Assembly: GCA_963765635.1 (NCBI GenBank)
Contig: CAVXXF010000002.1
Coordinates: 210,363 to 274,362 of the forward strand
Source: an uncultured Thermoleophilia bacterium
GTDB lineage: Bacteria; Actinomycetota; Thermoleophilia; UBA2241
Direction: 5' to 3'
Length of the DNA stretch: 64,000 nt
Shown: positions 5,091 to 29,516 of the stretch, piece by piece
How the letters are laid out: each line of letters begins with the position of its first letter
How positions within the stretch are numbered: position 1 is the first letter of the stretch
The notes under the pieces: generated by a model
The model's database searches: none
Seen by the model: the letters and a program-made list of their open reading frames with translations, nothing else
Told to the model about the DNA's origin: nothing
Translations under genes and position numbers: made by a program

Positions 5091-6249
5091 ATGGAAGTAG
5101 AGATCGGCCGCGGCAAGAAGGGTCGCCGCGCCTACGGCTTCGACGACATCGCCATCGTACCCAGTCGCCGTACGCGCGACGCGGAGGACGTCGACATCAC
5201 CTGGAAGCTCGGCCCGCACACGCTGCCGCTGCCGTGCCTCGCCTCCGCCATGGACGGCGTGGTCGACCCGCAATTCGCCGTCACCATGGGCAAGCTCGGC
5301 GGCCTCGCGGTGCTCAACCTCGAGGGCGTGCAGACGCGCTACGAGAACGCCGACGAGCAGCTCGACCGCATCGCTGCGCTGCCCAAGGAGTCGGCCACTC
5401 GCACAATGCAGGAGATCTACAAGGCGCCCATCAAGCCCGAGCTGGTCGGCCGGCGCATCAAGGAGATCAAGGCCGGCGGCGTCCTGGCCGCCGCCTCGCT
5501 CACCCCGCAACGCGTCGAGGACTTCTACCAGATCGCCCTCGAGGCCGGCCTCGACGTGCTGATCATCCAGGGCACCGTGGTCTCGGCCGAGCACGTGAGC
5601 ACCAGGGTCGAGCCCCTCGACCTGCGCAAGTTCATCGCCCAGTGCCCCGTGCCGGTGATCGTCGGCGGCGTGGCCAGCTACGCCACCACGCTGCACCTCA
5701 TGCGCACCGGCGCCGTGGGCGTGCTCGTGGGCGTCGGCCCCGGTCACGCCTGTACGACGCGCGGCGTGCTCGGCATCGGCGTGCCGCAGGCCACGGCCAT
5801 CGCCGACGCCGCGGCGGCGCGCGTGCAGCACGTGCTCGAGACGGGCCAGTACTGTCACGTCATCGCCGACGGCGGCATGCGCACCGGCGGCGACGTCAGC
5901 AAGGCCATCGCCCTCGGCGCCGACGCGGTCATGATCGGCTCGCCGCTGGCCGCGGCCAGCGAAGCGCCCGGCCGCGGCTACCACTGGGGCATGGCCACCT
6001 TCCACCCCGAGCTCCCGCGCGGCACGCGCGTGAAGGCCGGGGTCAAGGGTACCCTCGAAGAGATCCTCCTCGGCCCGGCCCACGAGAACGACGGCACGCT
6101 CAACCTGTTCGGCGCGCTTGCGCACGAGCATGGCCACCTGTGGCTACGAGACGCTGAGCTCGTTCCAGAAGGCCGAGGTCATGGTGGCGCCGTCGCTGAT
6201 GACCGAGGGCAAGAAGCTGCAGAAGGAGCAAGACGTCGGCATGGGCTGA
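5091..6249 (+). CDS. guaB3: GuaB3-type IMP dehydrogenase-family protein (IMPDH catalytic barrel without CBS insert), with an apparent +1 frameshift near 6117-6121
   Basis: N-terminus MEVEIGRGKKGRRAYGFDDIAIVPSRRTRDAEDVDI...GKLGGLAVLNLEGV is typical of GuaB3. After ...NLFGAL the track frame reads non-protein-like AHEHGHLWLRDAELV.... The +1 frame (own translation) gives the conserved family C-terminus LRTSMATCGYETLSSFQKAEVMVAPSLMTEGKKLQKEQDVGMG*, stop ~6247-6249. Sits immediately upstream of guaA, as in Actinobacteria. Confidence 0.8.
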
Positions 6250-12968: not shown

Positions 12969-13442
12969 GTGGACGCTCTCGACCGTCAGATACTCATCGC
13001 GTTGCAGCAGGACGGGAGCCTCACCAACGCCAGGCTGGCGCAGGCGCTCGGACTCTCGCAGTCGGCCATGTCCGAGCGCGTCAGGCGCCTCGAGCAGGAC
13101 GGCCACATCGCCGGCTATCGCGCCTTGGTCAACCCCACCAGTCTCGGGCTCGGCCTGCAGGCGTTCGTGGCCGCCGAGCTCGACCATCACAGCACCGAGA
13201 GCATCGAGTCCTTCGAGCACGGGGTCGTGAAGCTCCAGGCGGTGCGCGCCTGCTACCACGTGGCCGGCCGCTTCGACTACCTGCTCCACGTGGCCGTGCG
13301 CGACCTGGAGCACCTGGGTCATCTCATCAAGTACGACATCGCCGCGATCCCTGGAGTCGACAAGGTCGAGACCATGCTCGTGTACTCGGAGGTGAAGCCC
13401 GACGTGGGCTGGCCCGTTCATCCCGAGGGCCGGGAAGAGTGA
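12969..13442 (+). CDS. Lrp/AsnC-family transcriptional regulator
   Basis: 157 aa. N-terminal HTH (MDALDRQILIALQQDGSLTNARLAQALGLSQSAMSERVRRLEQDGHIAGYRA) plus C-terminal RAM/AsnC_C domain. Confidence 0.9.
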   Translation: MDALDRQILIALQQDGSLTNARLAQALGLSQSAMSERVRRLEQDGHIAGYRALVNPTSLGLGLQAFVAAELDHHSTESIESFEHGVVKLQAVRACYHVAGRFDYLLHVAVRDLEHLGHLIKYDIAAIPGVDKVETMLVYSEVKPDVGWPVHPEGREE

Positions 13443-13478: not shown

Positions 13479-14777
13479 ATGGAGGCAGGAGGACCGATGA
13501 CCACCCGAGACGCGATGCGCGCGCAGCTGCGCATCAAGCCCGCCGACCTGGAGGCCGTGAACGCGGTCCTCGCGGGCCCCGACAACGCTCTCGTGGACGG
13601 CCTCCTCGAGCTTGTCGAGAAGTACGGCGGCGTGGCGGAGATCAACCGCCGGGCCGACGAGGCGGGCCGCCTCGAGACCCGCCTTGCGCGCCTGCAGGAC
13701 GAGGCCTCCCCCTTCCTCTCCGGCCTCCACTGGCTCGCCGAGCAGCGCGACGCAGGCGCCTTCGTCTCGCTGCCCGAGTACCGGCGCAGCGTCCTCGGCC
13801 CTGAGGCCGACGCCATGACCGTCGACGAGCGCAACGCCGTGACCCTCGAGATCAGCGCCCTGCAGTACTTCCCCTGGCTGATCAGCGAGGCCGAGCAAGC
13901 CATCGAGCGCCGCGAGCTCATGCCGGGCCGCTACATCCGCGTGCGCACCATGGCCGAGCAGTGCGCCCCCGGCGAGGACGTCCTCGCCGTGGCCGCCGCC
14001 ATGCAGATCATCGGCGCCACGCACGTCGAGACCCTCGACACCAAGGGCATCGATGGCAGCAACGTCCACCTCGGCGGCCCCGCCACGATCACCGGCTACT
14101 TCGGCGGCATCGGCCAGCCCAACGACTACCCGCTCAAGTGGGCCGACGAGTACCTCGGCGTGCTCACGCAGTACGGAATCCGCCAGGTGCTCAACATCAA
14201 CAGCGGCACCATCCTCGTGGCCCTCCTGATGCACAAGCTGGGTATACGCAACGAGTTCAAAGTCTCGGTTTTCATGGGCGTCGACAACCCTTGGTCGGTG
14301 CTCTGGCTCCTGATTGGCGCCCGCCTGCTGGCGGCCGACGACGGCTCGACCAGCATGATCGGCCTCAATCTCTCCAACTCTGTCGAGTTGCCCACCCTGC
14401 TCGCCGCCGCCGAAGTGCGCCGCGGCCTGGGCTTTGACGGCGGCGTGCGTCTCGAGCACCACGTCACCGAGACCTGGAAGTCTATCGTGCGCCAGCCCTA
14501 CGACCGCCGCGGGGACGTGGTCGCCGCCGCGGCCACCGTGCCCAACATCTCCGCCAAGCACGAGGGCGGCGACCCGGAGACCGAGACGACCCGCGAGCAC
14601 CCCACCGACATCCTCGACTACTTCATCCCCAAGGAGCAGGTCATCGCCGACGGCCTCATGCCGCTGCTGGAACAGAACTACCTCGACAAGCACGCCGCCG
14701 TGAACCACACGGCCGCGGACCTCACCCGCGCCGGCATCGGAGTGCGCGCAGCCGCCCTGCTCCACGCACCGGCCTGA
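13479..14777 (+). CDS. Conserved hypothetical protein (432 aa), unknown function; sits between the Lrp regulator and the MttB-family gene
   Basis: Clean protein-like ORF with few Cys. No motif I can assign. The family was not identified. Confidence 0.55.
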   Translation: MEAGGPMTTRDAMRAQLRIKPADLEAVNAVLAGPDNALVDGLLELVEKYGGVAEINRRADEAGRLETRLARLQDEASPFLSGLHWLAEQRDAGAFVSLPEYRRSVLGPEADAMTVDERNAVTLEISALQYFPWLISEAEQAIERRELMPGRYIRVRTMAEQCAPGEDVLAVAAAMQIIGATHVETLDTKGIDGSNVHLGGPATITGYFGGIGQPNDYPLKWADEYLGVLTQYGIRQVLNINSGTILVALLMHKLGIRNEFKVSVFMGVDNPWSVLWLLIGARLLAADDGSTSMIGLNLSNSVELPTLLAAAEVRRGLGFDGGVRLEHHVTETWKSIVRQPYDRRGDVVAAAATVPNISAKHEGGDPETETTREHPTDILDYFIPKEQVIADGLMPLLEQNYLDKHAAVNHTAADLTRAGIGVRAAALLHAPA

Positions 14778-14873: not shown

Positions 14874-16331
14874 GTGAAGGACAGTCTCGTGGACTGGAGT
14901 CTCACCTGCACGACCCCCGCCGAGCGGGACCTCGTGATCGAATCCGCCCTGGCGGTGCTCGAGCGCGTGGGTATGCGCATGATGGGGGCGACGCGCGCGC
15001 TCGACGCGCTGGCGAGCCTCGGCGCCGGGGTCGACGTGGCGACGGGGGTCGTGCGCCTGCCGCCGGAGATGGTGCACGCGGCCCTGGCCACGCTCCCGGA
15101 CCAGCTGTTCATCGCGGGCGCGGTCCCCGCGCGAGATGTCGTCCTCGACCGGCACAGCGGCCCCTTCTTCAATCCCTCGGGGTGTCACGCCAAGACCCTC
15201 GACTTCCGCACGGGGCGGCTGCGCCCGTCCAGCATCCAGGATCTCCGCGAGGGTACCGTCGTCATGGACGCCACCCCGGAGATCGACGTGATGTGGACGT
15301 TCGTGACGGCCAACGACGTGCCCCTCGAGCGGCGTGAGCTGGTGGAGTGCTACACGTATCTCGCGAACACCTCCAAGCCGCTGGTGCTCGTCGACTGCCC
15401 GACGGATGCCACCGACGTGCGGCGCATCATGGATGTCCTCGGCGGCGGCCTGGAGGGCTTCCGCCGCCGCCCGCGCCTCGGCGTGCTCTGCGCGGCGCGT
15501 GCGCCGCTCGCGGTCAACGGCGCCCTGCTGGACGTCACCTGCGAGCTGGCCGCTCTCGGCAGCCCCGTCTGGGCCTACTCGATGGCCATGGCGGGGGCGA
15601 CCGGTCCCATCACGGTCGCCGGCATGCTGAGCCTGATGTGGGCCGAGATCCTCGGCCTCGTCACGGCGGTCCAGGCGGTCGCCCCCGGCGCGGCCGTCCT
15701 GGCCTGTTGCGGCCCGGGGATCCTCGACATGCGCACCGGCAACATGTCCCTCGGCAGCCCCGAAAACACGCTCATGGGCGTTGCCTCGGTCGAGATCGGC
15801 CACCATCTGGGGTTGCCGGTCCACAACTCCGCCCTGTCGACGGACGCCCAGCATCCCGGCGTACAGGCCGGGTACGAGAAGGGCATGAAGGTCCTTCCCG
15901 CGGTGCTGGCGGGCGTCGATCTCATCAGCGGGGGTTTCGGCGCCCTGGCCTCGTCGAGCGTATGGCATCTGCCCATGGTGCCCATCGACGCCGAGGTGGC
16001 GGCTCTCGTGCGGCGCCTCGCCGCGGGAAGCCCCATACGCCCGGAGGACGTGATGCTCGACATCATCGAGCGCGTGGGGGTCGGCGGCAGCTATCTCAAG
16101 GAGCGGGTCACCCGCGAGCGCGTGCGCGCCCTCGAGCACTTCACGCCCACGATCGGCAGCCGGCTGCCGATCGAGCAGTGGGTCGCCGCGGGCAAGCAGG
16201 AGGTCGACGTGGCGCGCGAACGCGTGGAGCAGACCCTGGCCGCAGCGCCGGCCCGGGAGGGCGCCGCGGCGCTCATGGGGGAAGAGCAGTTGCGCGCGCT
16301 CGCCGACGTGTGCGGCGTCGGGGTCAGTTGA
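14874..16331 (+). CDS. MttB-superfamily (COG5598, trimethylamine methyltransferase-like) protein, non-pyrrolysine type; presumed quaternary-amine:corrinoid methyltransferase
   Basis: 485 aa. Family-typical length and TIM-barrel-like sequence pattern (LERVGMRM...LPDQLFIAGA...NTLMGVASVEIGHHLGLPVH...LISGGFGALASS). No in-frame amber codon. No corrinoid-protein gene (DxHxxG) seen nearby. Confidence 0.75.
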   Translation: MKDSLVDWSLTCTTPAERDLVIESALAVLERVGMRMMGATRALDALASLGAGVDVATGVVRLPPEMVHAALATLPDQLFIAGAVPARDVVLDRHSGPFFNPSGCHAKTLDFRTGRLRPSSIQDLREGTVVMDATPEIDVMWTFVTANDVPLERRELVECYTYLANTSKPLVLVDCPTDATDVRRIMDVLGGGLEGFRRRPRLGVLCAARAPLAVNGALLDVTCELAALGSPVWAYSMAMAGATGPITVAGMLSLMWAEILGLVTAVQAVAPGAAVLACCGPGILDMRTGNMSLGSPENTLMGVASVEIGHHLGLPVHNSALSTDAQHPGVQAGYEKGMKVLPAVLAGVDLISGGFGALASSSVWHLPMVPIDAEVAALVRRLAAGSPIRPEDVMLDIIERVGVGGSYLKERVTRERVRALEHFTPTIGSRLPIEQWVAAGKQEVDVARERVEQTLAAAPAREGAAALMGEEQLRALADVCGVGVS

Positions 16332-16392: not shown

Positions 16393-17766
16393 ATGGCAGA
16401 TCTGCCGGAGACGCGTGAACACGAGGCGCTCGAGGAGGATTTCCTCGGCCACCTCTGGCCGCCGTTCACGCAGATGCAGGGCCTCAAGCCCGTGATCATG
16501 GACCACGCCGAGGGCGCGCTCGTCTACGACGCCGCCGGCAAGGCCTACATCGATGCCTTCGCCAGCCTGTGGACCGTCAACGTCGGCCACGGCCGCCAGG
16601 AGATCTTCGACGCCATCGCAGAGCAAGCGCAGAAGCTGGCGATCTACCACATCTTCCAGATCGCCAACGAGCCCTCCATCAAGCTCGCCGCCAAGGTCGC
16701 GGAGCACATGCCCGGCGACCTCAACCACGTCTTCTTCACACTCGGCGGCGGCGAGTCCGTGGAGACCGCCGTCAAGATGGCGCGCCAGTACTGGCGCAAC
16801 AAGGGCATGGGCACCAAGTACATGATCATGTTCCGCGACCGCTCCTACCACGGCACCACGATGACCAGCACGAGCGCCCAGGGCCTCTCCATGAACCGCG
16901 CCAAGTTCGAGCCCCTGCTGCCCGGGTTCATCAAGCTCGGCGCGCCCTACTGCTACCGCTGCTTCTGGGGCAAGACCTACGGCGAGGACTGCAAGATGGA
17001 GTGCGCCCGGCAGGTCGAGCAGGAGATCGCCTTCTACGGTCCCGAGAACGTTGGCACCATGCTCGGCGAGACGATGATCGGCACCGGCGGCGTGATCCCC
17101 CCGCCGCCCGAGTACTGGCCGATGGTCAACGAGATCTGCAAGGCGAGCGACGTGCTCGTGATCAACGACGAGGTGATCACCGGCTTCGGCCGCGCCGGCA
17201 CCTGGTTCGGCTTCGAGCAGTTCGGTTCCGACCCCGACCTCATCACCCTCGCCAAGGGCCTCTCTTCCGGCTACCTGCCGCTCGGCGCCGTGGGCGCCCG
17301 CGACCACGTCTTCGAGGCCTTCCTCGGCGACCCCGGCAGGACCTTCATGAGCGGCGCCACCTACAACGGGCACCCGCTCTGCTCGGCGGCCGGCATCGCC
17401 AACCTCGAGATCATCGAGCGCGAGCACCTCGTGGAGCGCTGCGCCGAGCTGGGCCCCTACCTCCAGGACGGCCTCGCGACGCTACTTGCGCACCCCATCG
17501 TCGGCGACGTGCGCGGCGTGGGCCTCGTGGCCGGGGTCGAGTTCGTCAAGGACAAGGAGACGCGCGAGTGGTTCGCCGCGGCACAGGGCGTGGCCGCCAA
17601 GGTCCGCGACGAGGCCTTCGCCCGCGGCGTCTTCGTACGCCTCCTCGGCGGCGGCCACGTGCTTGCCGTGGCGCCGCCGTTCATCATCAGCAAAGCGCAG
17701 ATCGACACTGTCGTGGCCGTCCTCGACGAAGCCATCGCCGTCGTCGAGCAGGAGCTCGGTCACTAG
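16393..17766 (+). CDS. Class-III PLP aminotransferase (omega-amino acid / GABA:pyruvate transaminase-like)
   Basis: 457 aa. Class-III signatures (VINDEVITGFGRAGTWFGFEQFG; GLSSGYLPLGAV). Complete. Confidence 0.85.
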   Translation: MADLPETREHEALEEDFLGHLWPPFTQMQGLKPVIMDHAEGALVYDAAGKAYIDAFASLWTVNVGHGRQEIFDAIAEQAQKLAIYHIFQIANEPSIKLAAKVAEHMPGDLNHVFFTLGGGESVETAVKMARQYWRNKGMGTKYMIMFRDRSYHGTTMTSTSAQGLSMNRAKFEPLLPGFIKLGAPYCYRCFWGKTYGEDCKMECARQVEQEIAFYGPENVGTMLGETMIGTGGVIPPPPEYWPMVNEICKASDVLVINDEVITGFGRAGTWFGFEQFGSDPDLITLAKGLSSGYLPLGAVGARDHVFEAFLGDPGRTFMSGATYNGHPLCSAAGIANLEIIEREHLVERCAELGPYLQDGLATLLAHPIVGDVRGVGLVAGVEFVKDKETREWFAAAQGVAAKVRDEAFARGVFVRLLGGGHVLAVAPPFIISKAQIDTVVAVLDEAIAVVEQELGH

Positions 17767-17846: not shown

Positions 17847-19073
17847 CTACTTCTTGACGGGAGCCTTCTTGGCCGGCGCCTTCTTCTCCTTGACCGGCTC
17901 GGTCCCCGGCTTGACGGCCATGTTGCGGTAGACCTGCTCCATGTCCTCGGCAGTGAACTTGCGCGGGTTGTTGTTCCACAGGCGGGCCTGCGTAAGGGCG
18001 CCCTTGACGAGGTCGGGGATCGCCGACTCGGGGATGCCCACCTCGTTGAGGTACTGCGGCACCTCGAGGTCCTCGGCCAGCGTGCGCAGGGCCTGCAGCG
18101 TGACCTCGCAACCCTCGCGATCGCTGAGGCCTTCCATGTTCTCGCCCATGAACTCGCCGATCTCGCGGAAGAACTGCGGGCAGGCGAGCATGTTGTACTC
18201 CATGACCCACGGCAGCATGAGCGTGTTGGCGATGCCGTGCGGCACATGGAACATGCCGCCCACGGGGTAGCTCATGGCGTGCACGGCGCCCACACCGGCG
18301 TTGCCGAAGGAGATGCCGCCGAGCAGCGAGCCGATGGCCATGTTGTGGCGCGCCCAGGCGTTGCTGCCGTCGAACACCGCCGTGCGGATGCTCTTGCTGA
18401 CGAGCTTGATGCCTTCAGCGGCGAGCGGGTCGGTGTGCATCGTGGCGTTCACCGAGATGTAGGCCTCGATGTTGTGGATCAGGGCGTCCATGCCGCTGGC
18501 GGCGGTGACGCCCGCCGGGCAGCTGTAGGTGAGCACGGGGTCGACGAGAGCGATGTTGGGGATGAGGTGCGGGCTCACGACGCCCTGCTTCACGTTCAGC
18601 TTCTCGTTGCTGAAGATGGCGATGGCCGTGACTTCGGTGCCGGTGCCGGCGGTGGTGGGCACGGCGATGAAGGGCAGACCCTTGTGGGGTACCTGGTCGA
18701 TACCGACGTAGTCCTCGAGACGGTCGTCGTTGGGCGCGAGCACGGCGACCACCTTGGCGACATCGATGGCCGAGCCGCCGCCGAAGCCGACGATGAGGTC
18801 GTACTTGCCTTCTTTGGCGATATCGACGATCTCGTGCACGCTGCCCATGGGCGGCTCGGGGACGGCCTTGTCGTAGATGCCGACGTCCATGCCCGCCTCG
18901 CGCAGCGGGGCCTCCACGCTTTCCACGGTGCCGCAGCAGGCCACGCCGGGGTCGGTGATGATGAGCACCTTCTTGGCGTGCAGCTTCTTGGCCTCGGCGC
19001 CGATCTGGGCGACGCAGCCGTTGCCTGTGATTAGCGTCTTGGGCGCTCTGTGCACGCGGATCTTGGTATCCAT
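17847..19073 (-). CDS. Iron-containing (group III) alcohol dehydrogenase, contextually a 4-hydroxybutyrate dehydrogenase; unusual Lys/Ala/Pro-rich C-terminal tail
   Basis: 408 aa. GGGS nucleotide motif (GFGGGSAIDVAK) and Fe-binding His cluster (GAVHAMSYPVGGMFHVPHG). Tail ...KPGTEPVKEKKAPAKKAPVKK. Confidence 0.8.
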   Translation of the reverse strand: MDTKIRVHRAPKTLITGNGCVAQIGAEAKKLHAKKVLIITDPGVACCGTVESVEAPLREAGMDVGIYDKAVPEPPMGSVHEIVDIAKEGKYDLIVGFGGGSAIDVAKVVAVLAPNDDRLEDYVGIDQVPHKGLPFIAVPTTAGTGTEVTAIAIFSNEKLNVKQGVVSPHLIPNIALVDPVLTYSCPAGVTAASGMDALIHNIEAYISVNATMHTDPLAAEGIKLVSKSIRTAVFDGSNAWARHNMAIGSLLGGISFGNAGVGAVHAMSYPVGGMFHVPHGIANTLMLPWVMEYNMLACPQFFREIGEFMGENMEGLSDREGCEVTLQALRTLAEDLEVPQYLNEVGIPESAIPDLVKGALTQARLWNNNPRKFTAEDMEQVYRNMAVKPGTEPVKEKKAPAKKAPVKK

Positions 19074-19098: not shown

Positions 19099-20409
19099 CT
19101 AGCGCGCGAGGCGGCCGGGGCCGTAGACGCCGGCCGCCTCCTCGCGGATCTGGTCTCTGAATGCTGGGTCGGCGATCTCGATGAGCGCTTCGGCGCGTTC
19201 GCGCAGGCCCATGCCGCGCAGGTGCGCGACGCCGTGCTCTGTGACGATGTAGTCGACGTCGGCGCGCATGGTGGTCACCGCCGTGCCGGGGCTGAGGGCG
19301 GCGACGATGCGCGACACGGCGCCCTTCTTCGCCGTGGACGGCAAGGCGATGATCGCCTTGCCGTCGCGGCTGCGGGCGGCGCCGCGCACGAAATCGACCT
19401 GCCCGCCGATGCCGGTGAACTGCACGGCGCCCATGGTGTCGGCCACCACCTGACCCTGCAGGTCGACCTGGATCGCCGAGTTGATGGCCACCACGCGGTC
19501 GTTCTGACCGATGAGATACGGGTCGTTGATGATGTTCACGGGGAACATGTTGACGGCGGGGTTGTCGTCGACGAAGTCGTACAGGCGGCGAGTGCCCATG
19601 AGGAAGGTCGCCGCCATCTTGTCGCGGTTGATGGTCTTGTTGCGGTTGGTGATGACGCCCTCGTTGTAGAGGTCGACGACGCCCTCGCTGAACATCTCGC
19701 TGTGGATGCCGAGGTCGTTCTTCTCGTGCAGAAAGAGGAGCACCGCGTCGGGGATGCCGCCGATGCCGAGCTGCAGGCAGGAGCCGTCCTCCACGAGGCC
19801 GGCGATGTGCTTGCCGATGGCCTCCTCGACGGGGCCGATGCGCGGCGGCTGCAGTTCGATGATCGCCTGCTCGCTCTCGACGACGAAGTCGATCTCGCTG
19901 ACATGGATGAACGAATCGCCGTGGGTGCGCGGCATGTTGGGGTTCACTTGGGCGACGACGGTCTTGGCGACCTGGGCGGCCGGCTTCGTGTAGTCCACCG
20001 AGACGCCGAAGGAGCAGAAGCCGTGCTTGTCGGGCGGCGACACATGGATGAGCACCACGTCGGGCGGCAGGTAGCCCTCGCAGAACAGCTTGGGGATCTC
20101 GTGGAAGAACACCGGGATGTAGTCGCCGCGCCCGTCCTTGACCGCCTCCCGCGAGGAGGCGCCGACGAACAGCGACTTGTGGAAGAAGGAGTCGGCGAAC
20201 TCGGGCTGGCAGTACTCGCCCTTGCCCATGGCGACCATGTGGTTGATCTCGACGCGCTCCAGATCGGCGGCCCGCGCCACGAGCGCGTCGACCAGCTCGA
20301 GGGGTTCGCCGCAGGCGTGCGCGAACACCACGCGGTCGCCCGACTTCACGCAGTCCATCGCCACGGCGGGGGAGACCCGTTTGCGATCGTAGTCCGACTT
20401 CCACTCCAT
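19099..20409 (-). CDS. abfT: 4-hydroxybutyrate CoA-transferase (acetyl-CoA hydrolase/transferase family)
   Basis: Start taken at internal MEWKSDYDRKRVSPAVAMDC. The track ORF has a Ser/Pro-rich extension. Family pattern throughout (GIGGIPDAV...; ...TEHGVAHLRG). Confidence 0.8.
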   Translation of the reverse strand: MEWKSDYDRKRVSPAVAMDCVKSGDRVVFAHACGEPLELVDALVARAADLERVEINHMVAMGKGEYCQPEFADSFFHKSLFVGASSREAVKDGRGDYIPVFFHEIPKLFCEGYLPPDVVLIHVSPPDKHGFCSFGVSVDYTKPAAQVAKTVVAQVNPNMPRTHGDSFIHVSEIDFVVESEQAIIELQPPRIGPVEEAIGKHIAGLVEDGSCLQLGIGGIPDAVLLFLHEKNDLGIHSEMFSEGVVDLYNEGVITNRNKTINRDKMAATFLMGTRRLYDFVDDNPAVNMFPVNIINDPYLIGQNDRVVAINSAIQVDLQGQVVADTMGAVQFTGIGGQVDFVRGAARSRDGKAIIALPSTAKKGAVSRIVAALSPGTAVTTMRADVDYIVTEHGVAHLRGMGLRERAEALIEIADPAFRDQIREEAAGVYGPGRLAR

Positions 20410-20413
20410 GCGC

Positions 20414-20671
20414 TTACTCCTTGAGCTTTCGCGTGACCGTGGGCGCGAGCTCGGCGGCCGGCGTGGGGACGCCGTCGACGAGCTCGCCGGCGACGACCAC
20501 GGTACCGGGGTCGTCGCTGACGAGCAGGTGGTCTGAGGCGCAGGCGCGAGGGCAGCCATTGACGTGCACGGTGACTCCCGGATCTACACCAGGGTCCTCG
20601 GCGAGCAGTTCGCCGGCCACGGCGGTACGGTCGATGTGGGGGTTGCAGCCCCCGCAGTACACGACCTTCAC
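20414..20671 (-). CDS. Small 85-aa four-cysteine protein (CxxC...CxxxC), thioredoxin-like or metal-binding; translationally coupled to abfD
   Basis: Own translation: MKVVYCGGCNPHIDRTAVAGELLAEDPGVDPGVTVHVNGCPRACASDHLLVSDDPGTVVVAGELVDGVPTPAAELAPTVTRKLKE. The GTG start overlaps the abfD TGA (GTGA). Stop is 4 nt before the abfT ATG. In the track this DNA is hidden inside the junk ORF 20414..21364. Confidence 0.55.
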   Translation of the reverse strand: MKVVYCGGCNPHIDRTAVAGELLAEDPGVDPGVTVHVNGCPRACASDHLLVSDDPGTVVVAGELVDGVPTPAAELAPTVTRKLKE

Positions 20672-22167
20672 GCGTCGGCTACCGCCGTGGGGGCCTTGAC
20701 CTTGCCCTTGTCCCACGGTTTGCCCACGCCGGCCAGCGCCTTGGCCAGATCCTTCTTGTGATCGATGTTGGACTGGCGCGCGATCATGATGCGCTGCGCC
20801 TGCGGTGAGCCCGCGCCGTGCATGCTCTCGGTGCGGTAGCCGACGGCCGCGGTGCCCAGCGTGAGGTTTTCGACGAGGCGCAGGATGCGCATGCGGTCGA
20901 TGGTCGGCGTGTCGCACTGCCCCACGAGATACTTCTCGACGATGGGGCCGAGCTTTTCGTCGGCGAGGTCGTGAGCCGACGGCATGGTGACCATGAGGCC
21001 GCCGGCGATGTCCTCGGCGAGGCGCGCGATCTCGTAGGGGAAGCGCGTGACGTTCTGCTTGCACACGTTGGCCAGCAGCATGTCGATCTGGAAGTTGCCG
21101 GCCGGCATCTTGACGCCCTCGTAGGAGCAGGCGAGCCCGCACGAGAACAAGGTCTCGTTGAGATGCGTCATCTCGATGAGCTTGTCCTTGATGTGGCTGG
21201 CCCTGGCGGCGCCGTTCATGTCGGCGGCTGTGGCGGCGGCGCCGATGAGCACGTCGCCGACGCCGACCTTGCAGCCGCCGTAGCTCTGGCGGTGGAAGCC
21301 GGCGAAGCGCTCGACGAGCGCTCCGGAGAACTCGATCTCGCCGCACAGGTACACCCTGTCCCACGGCACGAACACGTCGTCGAACACCATCAGTGCCTCT
21401 TGCCCGCCGAACTGGGCGTTGCCCACGTCGAGGTCGTTGCCCTCGAGCTTGCGCGTGTCGCAGCTCTGGCGGCCGTAGATGTAGTACACGCCCTCGGCGT
21501 TGGCCGGGCAGCTGAAGCTCACGGCGTAGTCCTCGTCGCCTTCGCGCATGGCGACCGTGGGCATGACGATGATCTCGTGAGAGTTGCAGGCGCCCGTCTG
21601 GTGCGCCTTGGCGCCGCGCACCACGATGCCGTCATCGCGCTTGTCGACGATGTGCAGGTACATGTCGGGGTCGGGCTGCTGGTGGGGCGCCAGGCCGCGA
21701 TCCCCCTTGGGATCGGTCATGGCGCCGTCGGCCACGAGGTCGTTGTCCTGCAGGTACTGGACGTACTTCTTGAAGCGCTCGTGGTACTGCGTGCCTCGCG
21801 CCTTGTCCGTCTCGTAGGTCACGGAGTACAGGGCGTTGATGGCATCCATGCCCACGCAGCGCTGGAAGCACGAGCCTGTCTTCTGGCCCAGCAGGCGCTG
21901 CATCTTGACCTTCTTGCTGAGGTCGTCGGTGGACTGGTGGATGTGGGTGAAGCGGTTGACCTTCTTGCCCGTGAGGTGGCTGGTGGCCAGCATGAGGTCT
22001 TCGTACTCGGGCAGAGCCGCCAGCTCGTAGGTCATGGCGATGCAGTTGATGCTGGGGCGGATCACGGGGTGGTCCACGTAGTCGTCGATCTGCTCGCCGA
22101 ACATGTAGATCTTCAGGTGCAGGTCGGCGATGCTCTGGCGGAACTCCTCGGGCGTCTTGAGAGCCAT
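20668..22167 (-). CDS. abfD: 4-hydroxybutyryl-CoA dehydratase / vinylacetyl-CoA delta-isomerase
   Basis: 500 aa from MALKTPEEFRQSIADLHLKIYMFGEQIDDYVDHPV.... Characteristic Cys/His [4Fe-4S]-FAD enzyme pattern (CFQRCVGMD; HQTGACNSHE; C..C). Confidence 0.85.
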   Translation of the reverse strand: MALKTPEEFRQSIADLHLKIYMFGEQIDDYVDHPVIRPSINCIAMTYELAALPEYEDLMLATSHLTGKKVNRFTHIHQSTDDLSKKVKMQRLLGQKTGSCFQRCVGMDAINALYSVTYETDKARGTQYHERFKKYVQYLQDNDLVADGAMTDPKGDRGLAPHQQPDPDMYLHIVDKRDDGIVVRGAKAHQTGACNSHEIIVMPTVAMREGDEDYAVSFSCPANAEGVYYIYGRQSCDTRKLEGNDLDVGNAQFGGQEALMVFDDVFVPWDRVYLCGEIEFSGALVERFAGFHRQSYGGCKVGVGDVLIGAAATAADMNGAARASHIKDKLIEMTHLNETLFSCGLACSYEGVKMPAGNFQIDMLLANVCKQNVTRFPYEIARLAEDIAGGLMVTMPSAHDLADEKLGPIVEKYLVGQCDTPTIDRMRILRLVENLTLGTAAVGYRTESMHGAGSPQAQRIMIARQSNIDHKKDLAKALAGVGKPWDKGKVKAPTAVADA

Positions 22168-22419
22168 CGGACAACTCCTCACGGGCGAGCGCGCGCTCTC
22201 GCGGGGCGCGCGCGGTGGCTAGCGGTGCGGTACTTCTGACTATAGAAGCGAGGCTGGGCTTCGTCAATTATCGCTAAAGACCAGCCAATCAGTGGCATCC
22301 AACTTGGACATTCCGTACAAGAACTGACGCTGCCCGAAGGTCCGCCGGGGGGTGGAGCGGGCCGCCTGCGGCCGCCGCCCCCGCCGGCACGTTTCGCCAA
22401 GGTGTACCAATTGGACTAG

Positions 22420-27917: not shown

Positions 27918-29516
27918 ATGGGCAGACTGACACATGGTTCACACAAGACGCGCCGACGTGGCGTCGCACGCGGCGTGAAGGTGGGGAGCCTGGTCGCGTT
28001 GCTGGCGCTGCTCGTGGCAGCGCCCGTGGCGCTGGCGGCGGTCGACAAGCAGCACGTCGTACTACGAACTTCGCACGACAACGGCAATCCGGGCGACAAC
28101 CACTGGAGGAACACCAACCAGACGGTGTCTGTCCTGGTCCAGCCCAGTGTGGGCACCACGGCCACGGCTTACTTCAGCTCCGACGGCGGCGCGACCTACA
28201 CTTCGAAGACCTACGGGACCATGGGTACCGCCGCCTTCGATTTCCTCGTGATCGCCGAGGGGTCCAATGCGGTAAGGTACGCCGCCACCGATAGTGGGGG
28301 GGCCACCGAGGCCACGAAGTCGCCCGGCTACGTCAACATCGACAAGACCGCCCCGGTCACCACGCCCACGGGCCTCGCACCAGTCTCGACGCAGACCGAT
28401 GACGCCAAGTGGTCCAAGGATGTCACGCGGACTGTCACGCTTGCGGCGACAGACGTAGTCGCGGGCATCAGCACGTCCGGCGTGCGCTGGAGCTTGCGGA
28501 GGATCAACAGCGGCTCTGTGGCCACGAGCGACACGGCCTCCGTCACCTTCACGCTGACCAAGGGCAGCGGTGGCGTGGTCGAAGGCGCCAACGCCGTGAC
28601 CTACTCGGCCGTGGATTGGGCGGGCAACTTCGAGACTACCCGCACCGGGTACGTCAACATCGACACCATCACGCCGACGACGACTCCCTCGCCGAATCTG
28701 GCCGCGAATGCGACGACCGGCTGGCGCAACACGCCGGCCACCGTCACGTTCGGTTGGACCGATGTCTCGTCGGGCGTGCCCACCGGGGGTACGACGTATC
28801 GGGTGAACGACGGAAACCCGACGGTCTATTTCAGCCCGTTCACGGTGAGCACGCAGGGCTCGACGAAGCTCTCGTATCGCTCGTTCGACAGGGCTCAGAA
28901 TGTTGAGGCCACGCAGACTGCGTACGTCAACATCGATGAGACGTCCCCGACCGTGAGCGCCGCGACGGCGCCGGCGGGCAGCTCGGGCTGGTACAACACC
29001 GACGTCGTGGTCAAGATTACGGGCGTCGATGCTCTATCGGGCATCGCGAAGACGCAGTACCGCCTCCAGGCAACTCCCCCGCTGCAGTGGGTCGACGCCG
29101 CGAGCGATCAGTTCACCGTGCTGTCGAGCGTCAATGCCAAGCAGACGTTCCAGTACCAGGCTGTGGACAAGGCCGGCAACGCGAGCGCTCTTGGCACGCT
29201 CGAGCTCAAGATGGACTCGGTCAGGCCCCAGGCCTCTGGCAAGGCGGCCTCGGGCAGGCACGGCAAGAACATCAAGCTCAAGTACAAGTTCACCGACAAC
29301 ATGAGTCCGTCGGCGACTGATGCATGGGTGAGGATCACGAAATCCAACGGCGCCGTGGTGAAGAACCAGAAGCTCAACGGCACCAAGGCTGTGAACAAGT
29401 GGTACTCCTTCAAGTGGAAGGCTGGGTCCAAGGGGACCTACAAGTACTACGTGCACGGCTTGGACCTCGCCGGGAACGCGTCGAAGACGAGCGCGGCGAA
29501 GATCAGGGTGAAGTAG
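27918..29516 (+). CDS. Secreted surface protein with tandem Ig-like (OmpL47/CHB_HEX_C-like, D-x-AGN-terminated) domains and a conserved C-terminal domain
   Basis: 532 aa. Signal peptide (VGSLVALLALLVAAPVALAAVD). Repeats ending YSAVDWAGNFE, YRSFDRAQNVE, YQAVDKAGNAS. C-terminal ...KGTYKYYVHGLDLAGNASKTSAAKIRVK. Confidence 0.7.
   Translation: MGRLTHGSHKTRRRGVARGVKVGSLVALLALLVAAPVALAAVDKQHVVLRTSHDNGNPGDNHWRNTNQTVSVLVQPSVGTTATAYFSSDGGATYTSKTYGTMGTAAFDFLVIAEGSNAVRYAATDSGGATEATKSPGYVNIDKTAPVTTPTGLAPVSTQTDDAKWSKDVTRTVTLAATDVVAGISTSGVRWSLRRINSGSVATSDTASVTFTLTKGSGGVVEGANAVTYSAVDWAGNFETTRTGYVNIDTITPTTTPSPNLAANATTGWRNTPATVTFGWTDVSSGVPTGGTTYRVNDGNPTVYFSPFTVSTQGSTKLSYRSFDRAQNVEATQTAYVNIDETSPTVSAATAPAGSSGWYNTDVVVKITGVDALSGIAKTQYRLQATPPLQWVDAASDQFTVLSSVNAKQTFQYQAVDKAGNASALGTLELKMDSVRPQASGKAASGRHGKNIKLKYKFTDNMSPSATDAWVRITKSNGAVVKNQKLNGTKAVNKWYSFKWKAGSKGTYKYYVHGLDLAGNASKTSAAKIRVK

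Follow-up and report, generated by a model that had tools for sequence, protein, structure and literature searches.

A conserved four-cysteine AF_0334 protein encoded between abfD and abfT is a candidate iron-sulfur accessory protein of AbfD-type dehydratases

In an uncultured Thermoleophilia bacterium (assembly GCA_963765635.1), a small open reading frame (ORF) of the AF_0334 family (PF27236) is located between the genes abfD and abfT, at positions 20414..20671 on the minus strand of the 64,000-nt stretch of contig CAVXXF010000002.1 that was analysed here and that we call the window. The sequence, its translation and its homologues leave us highly confident that this ORF (85 codons plus a TAA stop) encodes a real, conserved protein with four cysteines that is genomically tied to AbfD, the 4-hydroxybutyryl-CoA dehydratase / vinylacetyl-CoA isomerase. 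Since the small gene appears to be coupled to abfD and abfT and its family is linked to AbfD genes, we propose a dedicated AbfD accessory protein. As to its function, we lean towards an iron-sulfur protein that serves redox or cluster maintenance in AbfD-type enzymes.

A conserved gene coupled to abfD and abfT

Read from 20671 down to 20414, the ORF has the sequence GTG AAG GTC GTG TAC TGC ... AAG GAG TAA, with the GTG start codon at 20671..20669 and the TAA stop codon at 20416..20414, and its minus-strand translation is a protein of 85 residues, VKVVYCGGCNPHIDRTAVAGELLAEDPGVDPGVTVHVNGCPRACASDHLLVSDDPGTVVVAGELVDGVPTPAAELAPTVTRKLKE. The cysteines occupy residues 6, 9, 40 and 44 (codons at 20656..20654, 20647..20645, 20554..20552 and 20542..20540, respectively), giving the pattern C-x2-C-x30-C-x3-C. 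At its 5' end, the ORF overlaps abfD: the tetranucleotide GTGA (20668..20671) combines the abfD stop codon TGA (20670..20668) with the GTG of the small ORF, the two having two bases in common. At the other end, only the four nucleotides GCGC separate the TAA from the ATG of abfT (20409..20407). The first-pass annotation had described an ORF for an 85-aa protein with these two junctions and this cysteine pattern, and the sequence agrees with it on each count. Moreover, the last two codons (Lys-Glu) read AAGGAG (20417..20422, minus strand), 7 nt upstream of the abfT ATG, and this motif, which is identical in the related locus L022, is likely the Shine-Dalgarno sequence at which ribosomes bind for abfT. 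From the GTGA overlap and the AAGGAG motif we can reasonably infer that translation is coupled from abfD via the small ORF to abfT, and the particularly strong conservation of the C-terminal ...RKLKE is probably due in part to this coupling as well.

Four lines of evidence argue that the small ORF is a real protein-coding gene, far beyond chance, as had been supposed from the start. First, a search of 5.8 billion proteins returned 366 close homologues that align over the full length at 51-95% identity, an exhaustive search of 1.8 billion cluster representatives matched 90 clusters, and a profile built from 19 divergent members matched 3,227 proteins. Second, when the window was compared with four orthologous loci, the nucleotide differences at the first, second and third codon positions numbered 113, 125 and 286, respectively. 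Third, the genes of the same set are 258, 261 and 309 nt long, and these lengths differ by multiples of three throughout. Finally, the cysteines are invariant across phyla. These observations bear directly on the rival idea of a spurious, untranslated ORF of a GC-rich genome: the window has a G+C content of 68% and is rich in long non-coding ORFs, and the small ORF itself lies within a junk ORF of 316 amino acids, but the third-position bias, the in-frame length differences, the invariant cysteines and the kept position and coupling effectively refute this idea, to which we assign next to no probability. The junk ORF (20414..21364) crosses abfD out of frame, and the small gene is present in the mechanical ORF list only as its 3' end. 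The gene had for this reason been called hidden, which is correct for a six-frame list of longest ORFs but not for gene callers: an identical 85-aa protein (P0323), encoded on a 1.25-Mb contig, is already present in public collections (NCBI and ENA), and therefore standard gene callers do find the small ORF.

The window departs from most of its actinobacterial homologues at the junction between abfD and the small ORF. In most homologues, abfD ends with ...GCCGAC TGA, which is followed by 2-5 nt, by an ATG with 12 codons (MTEEQQAEPERR-like), and then by GTG AAG GTC GTG TAC TGC. The window (20668-20675) has about 39 nt fewer here than most homologues (L001, L004, L005 and L008, around position 6000), and the missing segment comprises the abfD stop codon, the short spacer, the ATG and the 12-codon N-terminal extension. 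Compared with the homologues that have the extension, the window abfD carries one extra Ala codon, and its TGA overlaps the conserved GTG. This deletion architecture is matched base for base by L022, the small protein of which is 80% identical, and there the public gene call begins at that very GTG. Reading of the junction sequence reveals no alternative start codon in the 12 in-frame codons upstream of the GTG. By this comparison, it is the 39-nt loss that produced the GTGA overlap in the sublineage of the window and L022; either the protein can do without the N-terminal extension, or translation truly begins at the conserved GTG in all homologues.

The assignment of the protein to PF27236 is near-certain because every homologue returned carries this precomputed Pfam domain and because P0001, which is 95% identical to the window protein and carries PF27236, falls into the same 90% cluster as the exact window protein. 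Local Pfam and NCBIfam scans of the window protein gave nothing significant (0 Pfam families), the Pfam copy used being one without the PF27236 model. AF_0334 proteins stand alone, are about 85-110 aa long and share the signature [YF]CGGCNPxIDR ... GCxxxC ... AG(E) strand, all of which is present in the window protein. In family alignments that reach down to about 26-30% identity, C6, G7, C9, P11, G39, C40 and C44 are invariant, and Y5, N10, I13, D14, R15 and G62 are nearly so. The loop between the two cysteine pairs comprises 30 residues in the actinobacterial group and 38-43 elsewhere, and the isoelectric point ranges from 4.6 to 9.7 across the family, that is, it is not uniformly acidic as in ferredoxins. 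The named sources include Actinomycetota, Thermoleophilia, Smithella, Syntrophaceae, Desulfosalsimonas and Desulfobacteraceae, and the Pfam name, taken from an Archaeoglobus fulgidus locus tag, implies a member in Archaeoglobus. With the same size, signature and precomputed domain, the window copy is an ordinary member of a family that is catalogued but functionally blank; it belongs to a sublineage without the ~39 nt and the 12-residue N-terminal extension, and nothing that defines the family differs. In the open-access text we found no paper on PF27236/AF_0334 or on a small AbfD partner. The claim that such a protein would be new for this pathway has thus to be narrowed: the family is in Pfam and the ORF has been publicly called, and what stands is that no paper was found that links AF_0334 to AbfD.

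Many actinobacterial homologues (P0058, P0067, P0082, P0090, P0093, P0104, P0112 and P0118) contain in-frame low-complexity insertions of 15-60 residues that are rich in Ala, Glu, Pro and Gly and in some cases internally repeated, e.g. DGVRG(T/A)(A/P)GTP(H/Q) in P0104. Two loops accommodate them, one that follows helix 1 and one that follows the CxxxC pair, and the core stays intact. Four database hits (P0160, P0161, P0170 and P0204) were rejected as homologues, their repeated matches to residues 2-29 being surface-protein repeats with a VVYCSIC motif. Frameshift-split genes (abfD, gdh or abfT) occur in L004 (4661-5996), L008 (2633-3995 and 6300-8535) and L022 (4506-6004). In these metagenome contigs, the splits are probably assembly or sequencing errors, and they account for the apparent fusion proteins P0121 (AbfD fragment and small protein) and P0146 (small protein and AbfT), which are frameshift read-throughs.

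Linkage to AbfD genes

The gene upstream of the small ORF (20668..22167, minus strand) encodes a protein of 499 aa with HpaB_N and HpaB domains that matches the Clostridium aminobutyricum 4-hydroxybutyryl-CoA dehydratase 1u8v over its full length (residues 3-481, E 3.8e-231) and the Nitrosopumilus enzyme 6vjr with E 2.1e-189. CFQRC begins at residue 100 and HRQSYGGC at residue 292, and these motifs correspond to the Cys3-His ligands that hold the AbfD [4Fe-4S] cluster in the 1u8v structure. By these matches, the gene is a true abfD. Its start is most likely the ATG at 22167 rather than the GTG at 22182, because the alignment with its homologues begins at residue 6 of the ORF as listed.

The association of the AF_0334 family with AbfD was assessed in 22 loci. 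All actinobacterial loci (L001, L002, L004-L008, L022 and the window) have the order abfD-small gene-abfT-alcohol dehydrogenase, transcribed divergently from the genes for glutamate dehydrogenase and P-II. A similar small ORF, for which the first-pass annotation had suggested looking in other abfD-abfT loci, is thus present in all actinobacterial loci obtained. In other lineages, seven distinct context types were recognised among distant members with small proteins 27-37% identical to that of the window, and in six of the seven, as in all actinobacterial loci, an AbfD-family gene lies within 6 kb. The order is thiolase-3HCDH-AbfD-...-AbfD-NifU-small gene-aminotransferase IV in L011/L012 and thiolase-3HCDH-AbfD-NifU-small gene-aminotransferase IV in L019. 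L015/L016/L018 have AbfD-small gene-TetR-AbfD paralogue-SDR-isochorismatase, L009/L010 a cassette of the same type with two acyl-CoA dehydrogenase-like genes before the small gene, and L017 a rearranged version with an intervening HigB/HTH pair. Finally, L020 has thiolase-enoate reductase-MaoC-AbfD-like-small gene. In tblastn comparisons, identity to the window AbfD is 53-70% for the adjacent AbfD genes and 37-38% for the paralogues, and the CxxxC and Hx6C cluster-ligand motifs are kept in every AbfD-family gene checked (L005, L009, L011, L015, L017, L019 and L020). A further match, L003 (Salinicola), was discarded: a genome scan returned two true loci and L003, the latter being a chance match inside a GntR/MocR-type aminotransferase gene. 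L001 and L002 are the genome loci closest to the window and point to a metagenome-assembled, probably Thermoleophilia-like genome of the Actinomycetota.

Given that a genome would hold only a handful of AbfD-family genes, we estimate that AbfD adjacency would arise by chance at the percent level, so that its presence in six of the seven context types and in all actinobacterial loci is a strong linkage signal. It can be asked whether the small protein might nevertheless be a general-purpose small iron-sulfur electron carrier without a specific relation to AbfD, the adjacency simply reflecting operon packing in anaerobic acyl-CoA metabolism. The seventh context type, L013/L014, in which no AbfD gene is present within 6 kb, would fit this explanation, as would L009/L010, in which the small gene follows the two acyl-CoA dehydrogenase-like genes and not AbfD. 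It is made improbable, however, by the AbfD-family genes in the great majority of the contexts, by the finding that AbfD is directly upstream even between lineages the small proteins of which share only about 30-36% identity, and by the expectation, under the same assumption on gene number, that an AbfD gene would be met within 6 kb by chance in a few percent of cases at most. The preferred reading is still that of a protein dedicated to AbfD-type enzymes.

Some of these loci hold further genes of interest. In L011/L012/L019 (5718-6011), a gene for a 97-aa NifU-domain protein (PF01106) lies between the AbfD and AF_0334 genes and overlaps the AF_0334 start by 11 nt. NifU/Nfu-type carriers are likewise small cysteine-containing proteins encoded beside AbfD genes, but AF_0334 proteins belong to another family and fold, and as both occur in one locus they are not simple substitutes for each other. 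These NifU neighbours suggest that AbfD loci recruit dedicated iron-sulfur helpers. In the window, the four genes of the abfD-to-alcohol dehydrogenase operon, to which this search was confined, include no NifU gene. In the Syntrophales-type contigs, a cassette of a TetR regulator, a divergent AbfD paralogue (37-38% identical, ligands kept), an SDR and an isochorismatase-like hydrolase adjoins the AF_0334 gene (L009 7263-10192, L015 7321-10211, L017 8627-11445 and L018 7300-10229). In L017 (2751-3784), a HigB-like toxin / helix-turn-helix (HTH) antitoxin pair, followed by a duplicated AbfD C-terminal fragment of 75 aa that is 69% identical to the window AbfD, is placed between the AbfD and AF_0334 genes; this looks like a local insertion or rearrangement.

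Predicted fold, metal site and proposed role

The AlphaFold2 model of the window protein, calculated with 58 family sequences, is confident (pLDDT 88.5, pTM 0.83) and shows, in this order, a strand (residues 2-5), a helix (15-24), two strands (34-38 and 57-61), a short hairpin and a helix (72-84). The C-x2-C pair is located in the loop after the first strand, and G-C-x3-C follows the next central strand. In a structure search, the model scored 8.4 with IspG (3noy_A; 76 of the 85 residues aligned), 6.4 with DsrB (3mm5_B), 6.1 with nitrite reductase (3b0g_A), 6.0 with GcpE (2y0f_A), 5.9 with DsrA (3mm5_A), 5.3 with an F420-dependent sulfite reductase (7np8_A) and 5.0 with SiRHP (4g38_A). An independent Foldseek search placed IspG, tobacco nitrite reductase and GcpE at the top, if weakly (best E 0.032, prob 0.96). 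In E. coli IspG, C270, C273, C305 and E312 form the pattern C-x2-C-x31-C-x6-E, and its first three ligands are thus spaced almost as the cysteines of the window protein. What the predicted fold resembles most, with moderate confidence, is the [4Fe-4S] domain found in IspG and in sulfite and nitrite reductases. Faint agreement with these fold matches comes from the sequence: the window protein reaches 16.5 bits with the CobG model (cut-off 234.8; E 0.0033) and 9.4 bits with the NirA model (cut-off 523), a sequence and profile search of the PDB returned only NirA (1zj8, E 1.8), which has a GCPNSC loop, and one label among the homologues, from JGI, is 'sulfite reductase beta subunit-like hemoprotein'.

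AF_0334 proteins would thus work like the cluster module of IspG and sulfite reductases and may be its distant relatives rather than members of those families. Compared with the C-terminal [4Fe-4S] domain of IspG (3noy, 2y0f), the model has the same fold with the ligands after strand 1 and the next central strand, but the fourth ligand is a glutamate in IspG (C-x6-E) and would be the conserved Cys44 (C-x3-C) in the window protein; moreover, in IspG the domain forms one chain with a TIM barrel and binds the substrate at its cluster, whereas the window protein stands alone with its 85 aa. As compared with the 4Fe-4S domain of sulfite and nitrite reductases and of CobG (NIR_SIR, PF01077), neither the window protein nor any of the 58 aligned members has a match above the cut-off: the Pfam scan of these members gave only rare sub-threshold matches to DGC, CGGC and Rdx, and none to NIR_SIR. 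IspG was absent from the results of the PDB profile search.

Several observations weigh against an IspG-like module that serves AbfD. The model of a second family member yielded mostly generic alpha/beta matches, and an hhalign comparison of the family profile with the C-terminal region of E. coli IspG indicated no relation (probability 0.15). A strict requirement for the small protein is opposed by the AbfD-less loci L013/L014 and by the two solved structures of AbfD, each of which shows a homotetramer that lacks a partner.

A resemblance to small thioredoxin-fold, Rdx/SelW or rubredoxin proteins, as put forward in the first-pass annotation, did not withstand the analysis. C-x2-C motifs are indeed present in these families, and 4 of the 58 members match Rdx (PF10262) at E >= 0.11; but there was no significant Pfam match to any of them, and the structure searches return IspG and the [4Fe-4S] domain of sulfite and nitrite reductases instead. 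Specifically, the thioredoxin fold, including thioredoxin-like [2Fe-2S] ferredoxins, has neither a Pfam match nor a fold match, Rdx/SelW has no match in the window protein, and rubredoxin, again without a Pfam match, is at odds with the C-x3-C spacing of the second pair and the alpha/beta sandwich of the model. A redox protein of one of these kinds is very improbable.

The metal deserves closer consideration, as four invariant cysteines suit zinc as well as an iron-sulfur cluster. The protein might be a structural, zinc-binding (Cys4) protein, i.e. an assembly factor, a stabilising subunit or a regulator of AbfD-type enzymes without redox or cluster chemistry. Of the 58 aligned members, four match DGC (best E 0.0032) and two match CGGC (best E 0.0019), both of them putative zinc-binding domains. 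These weak matches, the generic alpha/beta folds matched by the second model, and the TetR regulator gene that often follows the small gene in Syntrophales-type loci would fit this explanation. However, the DGC and CGGC matches are rare and below threshold, every one of the top structural matches of the window protein is a [4Fe-4S] domain in which the positions of the first three cysteines agree, and the neighbours are iron-sulfur enzymes and, in some loci, the NifU-domain protein. We regard the zinc protein as unlikely, though as an alternative to be taken seriously, and consider iron-sulfur somewhat better than an even bet for the Cys4 site. The cluster would most likely be of the [4Fe-4S] type, in an exposed site as in IspG.

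Taken together, we suggest the following scenario. The gene of the small alpha/beta AF_0334 protein would share a transcript with abfD and abfT and be coupled to both in translation, and the four invariant cysteines of the protein would be the ligands of an iron-sulfur cluster, probably of the [4Fe-4S] kind, in the same arrangement as in the cluster domain that IspG shares with the sulfite and nitrite reductases. Given the genomic tie of its family to the Fe-S/FAD (flavin adenine dinucleotide) AbfD branch of the HpaB superfamily, it would service AbfD, presumably by physical interaction, in one of two ways: (a) it may be a one-electron partner that returns the FAD/[4Fe-4S] pair of AbfD to the catalytically competent redox state, or (b) it may be a helper that inserts or repairs the labile AbfD cluster. 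In C. aminobutyricum, AbfD with oxidised FAD is active, and both full reduction and air inactivate the enzyme. Role (b) agrees with the NifU neighbour, and both roles are compatible with the present data, which do not separate them. Of the dedicated redox or cluster-handling partner proposed in the first-pass annotation, the linkage to AbfD far beyond one genome and the four invariant cysteines stand, the proposed fold classes do not, and the role itself is a reasonable suggestion that gains from the comparison of genomes. Going further, AF_0334 proteins might be IspG/SiR-type [4Fe-4S] modules of a class that has escaped notice, which stand alone and serve AbfD-type radical dehydratases as dedicated partners for redox poising or cluster repair without the use of ATP; this is a tentative idea that we consider rather unlikely in this full form. 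It invites comparison with the archerases, the ATP-dependent activators of 2-hydroxyacyl-CoA dehydratases: the likeness is purely conceptual and consists in an iron-sulfur helper that is encoded with a radical acyl-CoA dehydratase and sets its redox state, whereas the small protein has no ATPase (BcrAD_BadFG) domain, has no relation in sequence or fold, and is much smaller. AbfD is known to work without an archerase-type activator.

The surrounding gene cluster and implications

Downstream of the small ORF, and immediately so in all actinobacterial loci, lies the gene for an AbfT-like 4-hydroxybutyrate CoA-transferase of 436 aa (19099..20409, minus strand; AcetylCoA_hydro and AcetylCoA_hyd_C domains). 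The last gene of the operon (17847..19073, minus strand) encodes an iron-containing alcohol dehydrogenase of 408 aa (Fe-ADH, ADH_Fe_C), which scores 258 bits with the 4-hydroxybutyrate dehydrogenase model, under the cut-off of this model, and is a probable 4-hydroxybutyrate dehydrogenase; its position is kept in L001, L002 and L004-L008. Upstream of abfD, a promoter-like site (22239..22267, minus strand) with TTGACG, a 17-nt spacer and TATAGT is a consensus match only, with agreement at 10 of 12 positions. On the other side of the operon follow genes on the plus strand for a class-III aminotransferase (16393-17766), an MTTB-family protein and an AsnC-type regulator, and by its gene content the locus is a 4-aminobutyrate/4-hydroxybutyrate catabolic cluster. 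The MTTB-family (trimethylamine methyltransferase-like) gene (14874-16331) is directly upstream of the aminotransferase gene, with the AsnC/Lrp regulator gene (12969-13442) nearby, and might link the catabolism of methylated amines (betaine-type substrates) to the 4-aminobutyrate/4-hydroxybutyrate route. Two further plus-strand ORFs (13479-14777 and 27918-29516) are gene-like in their third-position G+C (0.94 and 0.87, respectively), and Pfam returned nothing for either of them at E<=1e-5.

Among known dehydrations, the one catalysed by AbfD is chemically one of the most difficult. The enzyme, which is key to 4-aminobutyrate fermentation and to two CO2-fixation cycles of archaea, has been studied as a homotetramer on its own. 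The conserved Cys4 protein encoded beside Fe-S-type AbfD genes in distant phyla is a concrete candidate for a missing accessory function, which would either keep FAD and cluster in the active redox state or install and repair the oxygen-labile cluster. The interest of the finding lies in this testable hypothesis for AbfD biology rather than in the window locus as such, and an uncharacterised Pfam family would thereby receive a functional hypothesis for the first time. For the heterologous expression of AbfD in engineered 4-hydroxybutyrate or carbon-fixation pathways, a helper of this kind could be relevant. If AF_0334 proteins do form the class of stand-alone partner modules outlined above, 4-hydroxybutyryl-CoA dehydratase, long deemed self-sufficient, would have an accessory protein in many anaerobes, i.e. 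in Actinomycetota, in Desulfobacterota/Syntrophales and possibly in Archaeoglobus.
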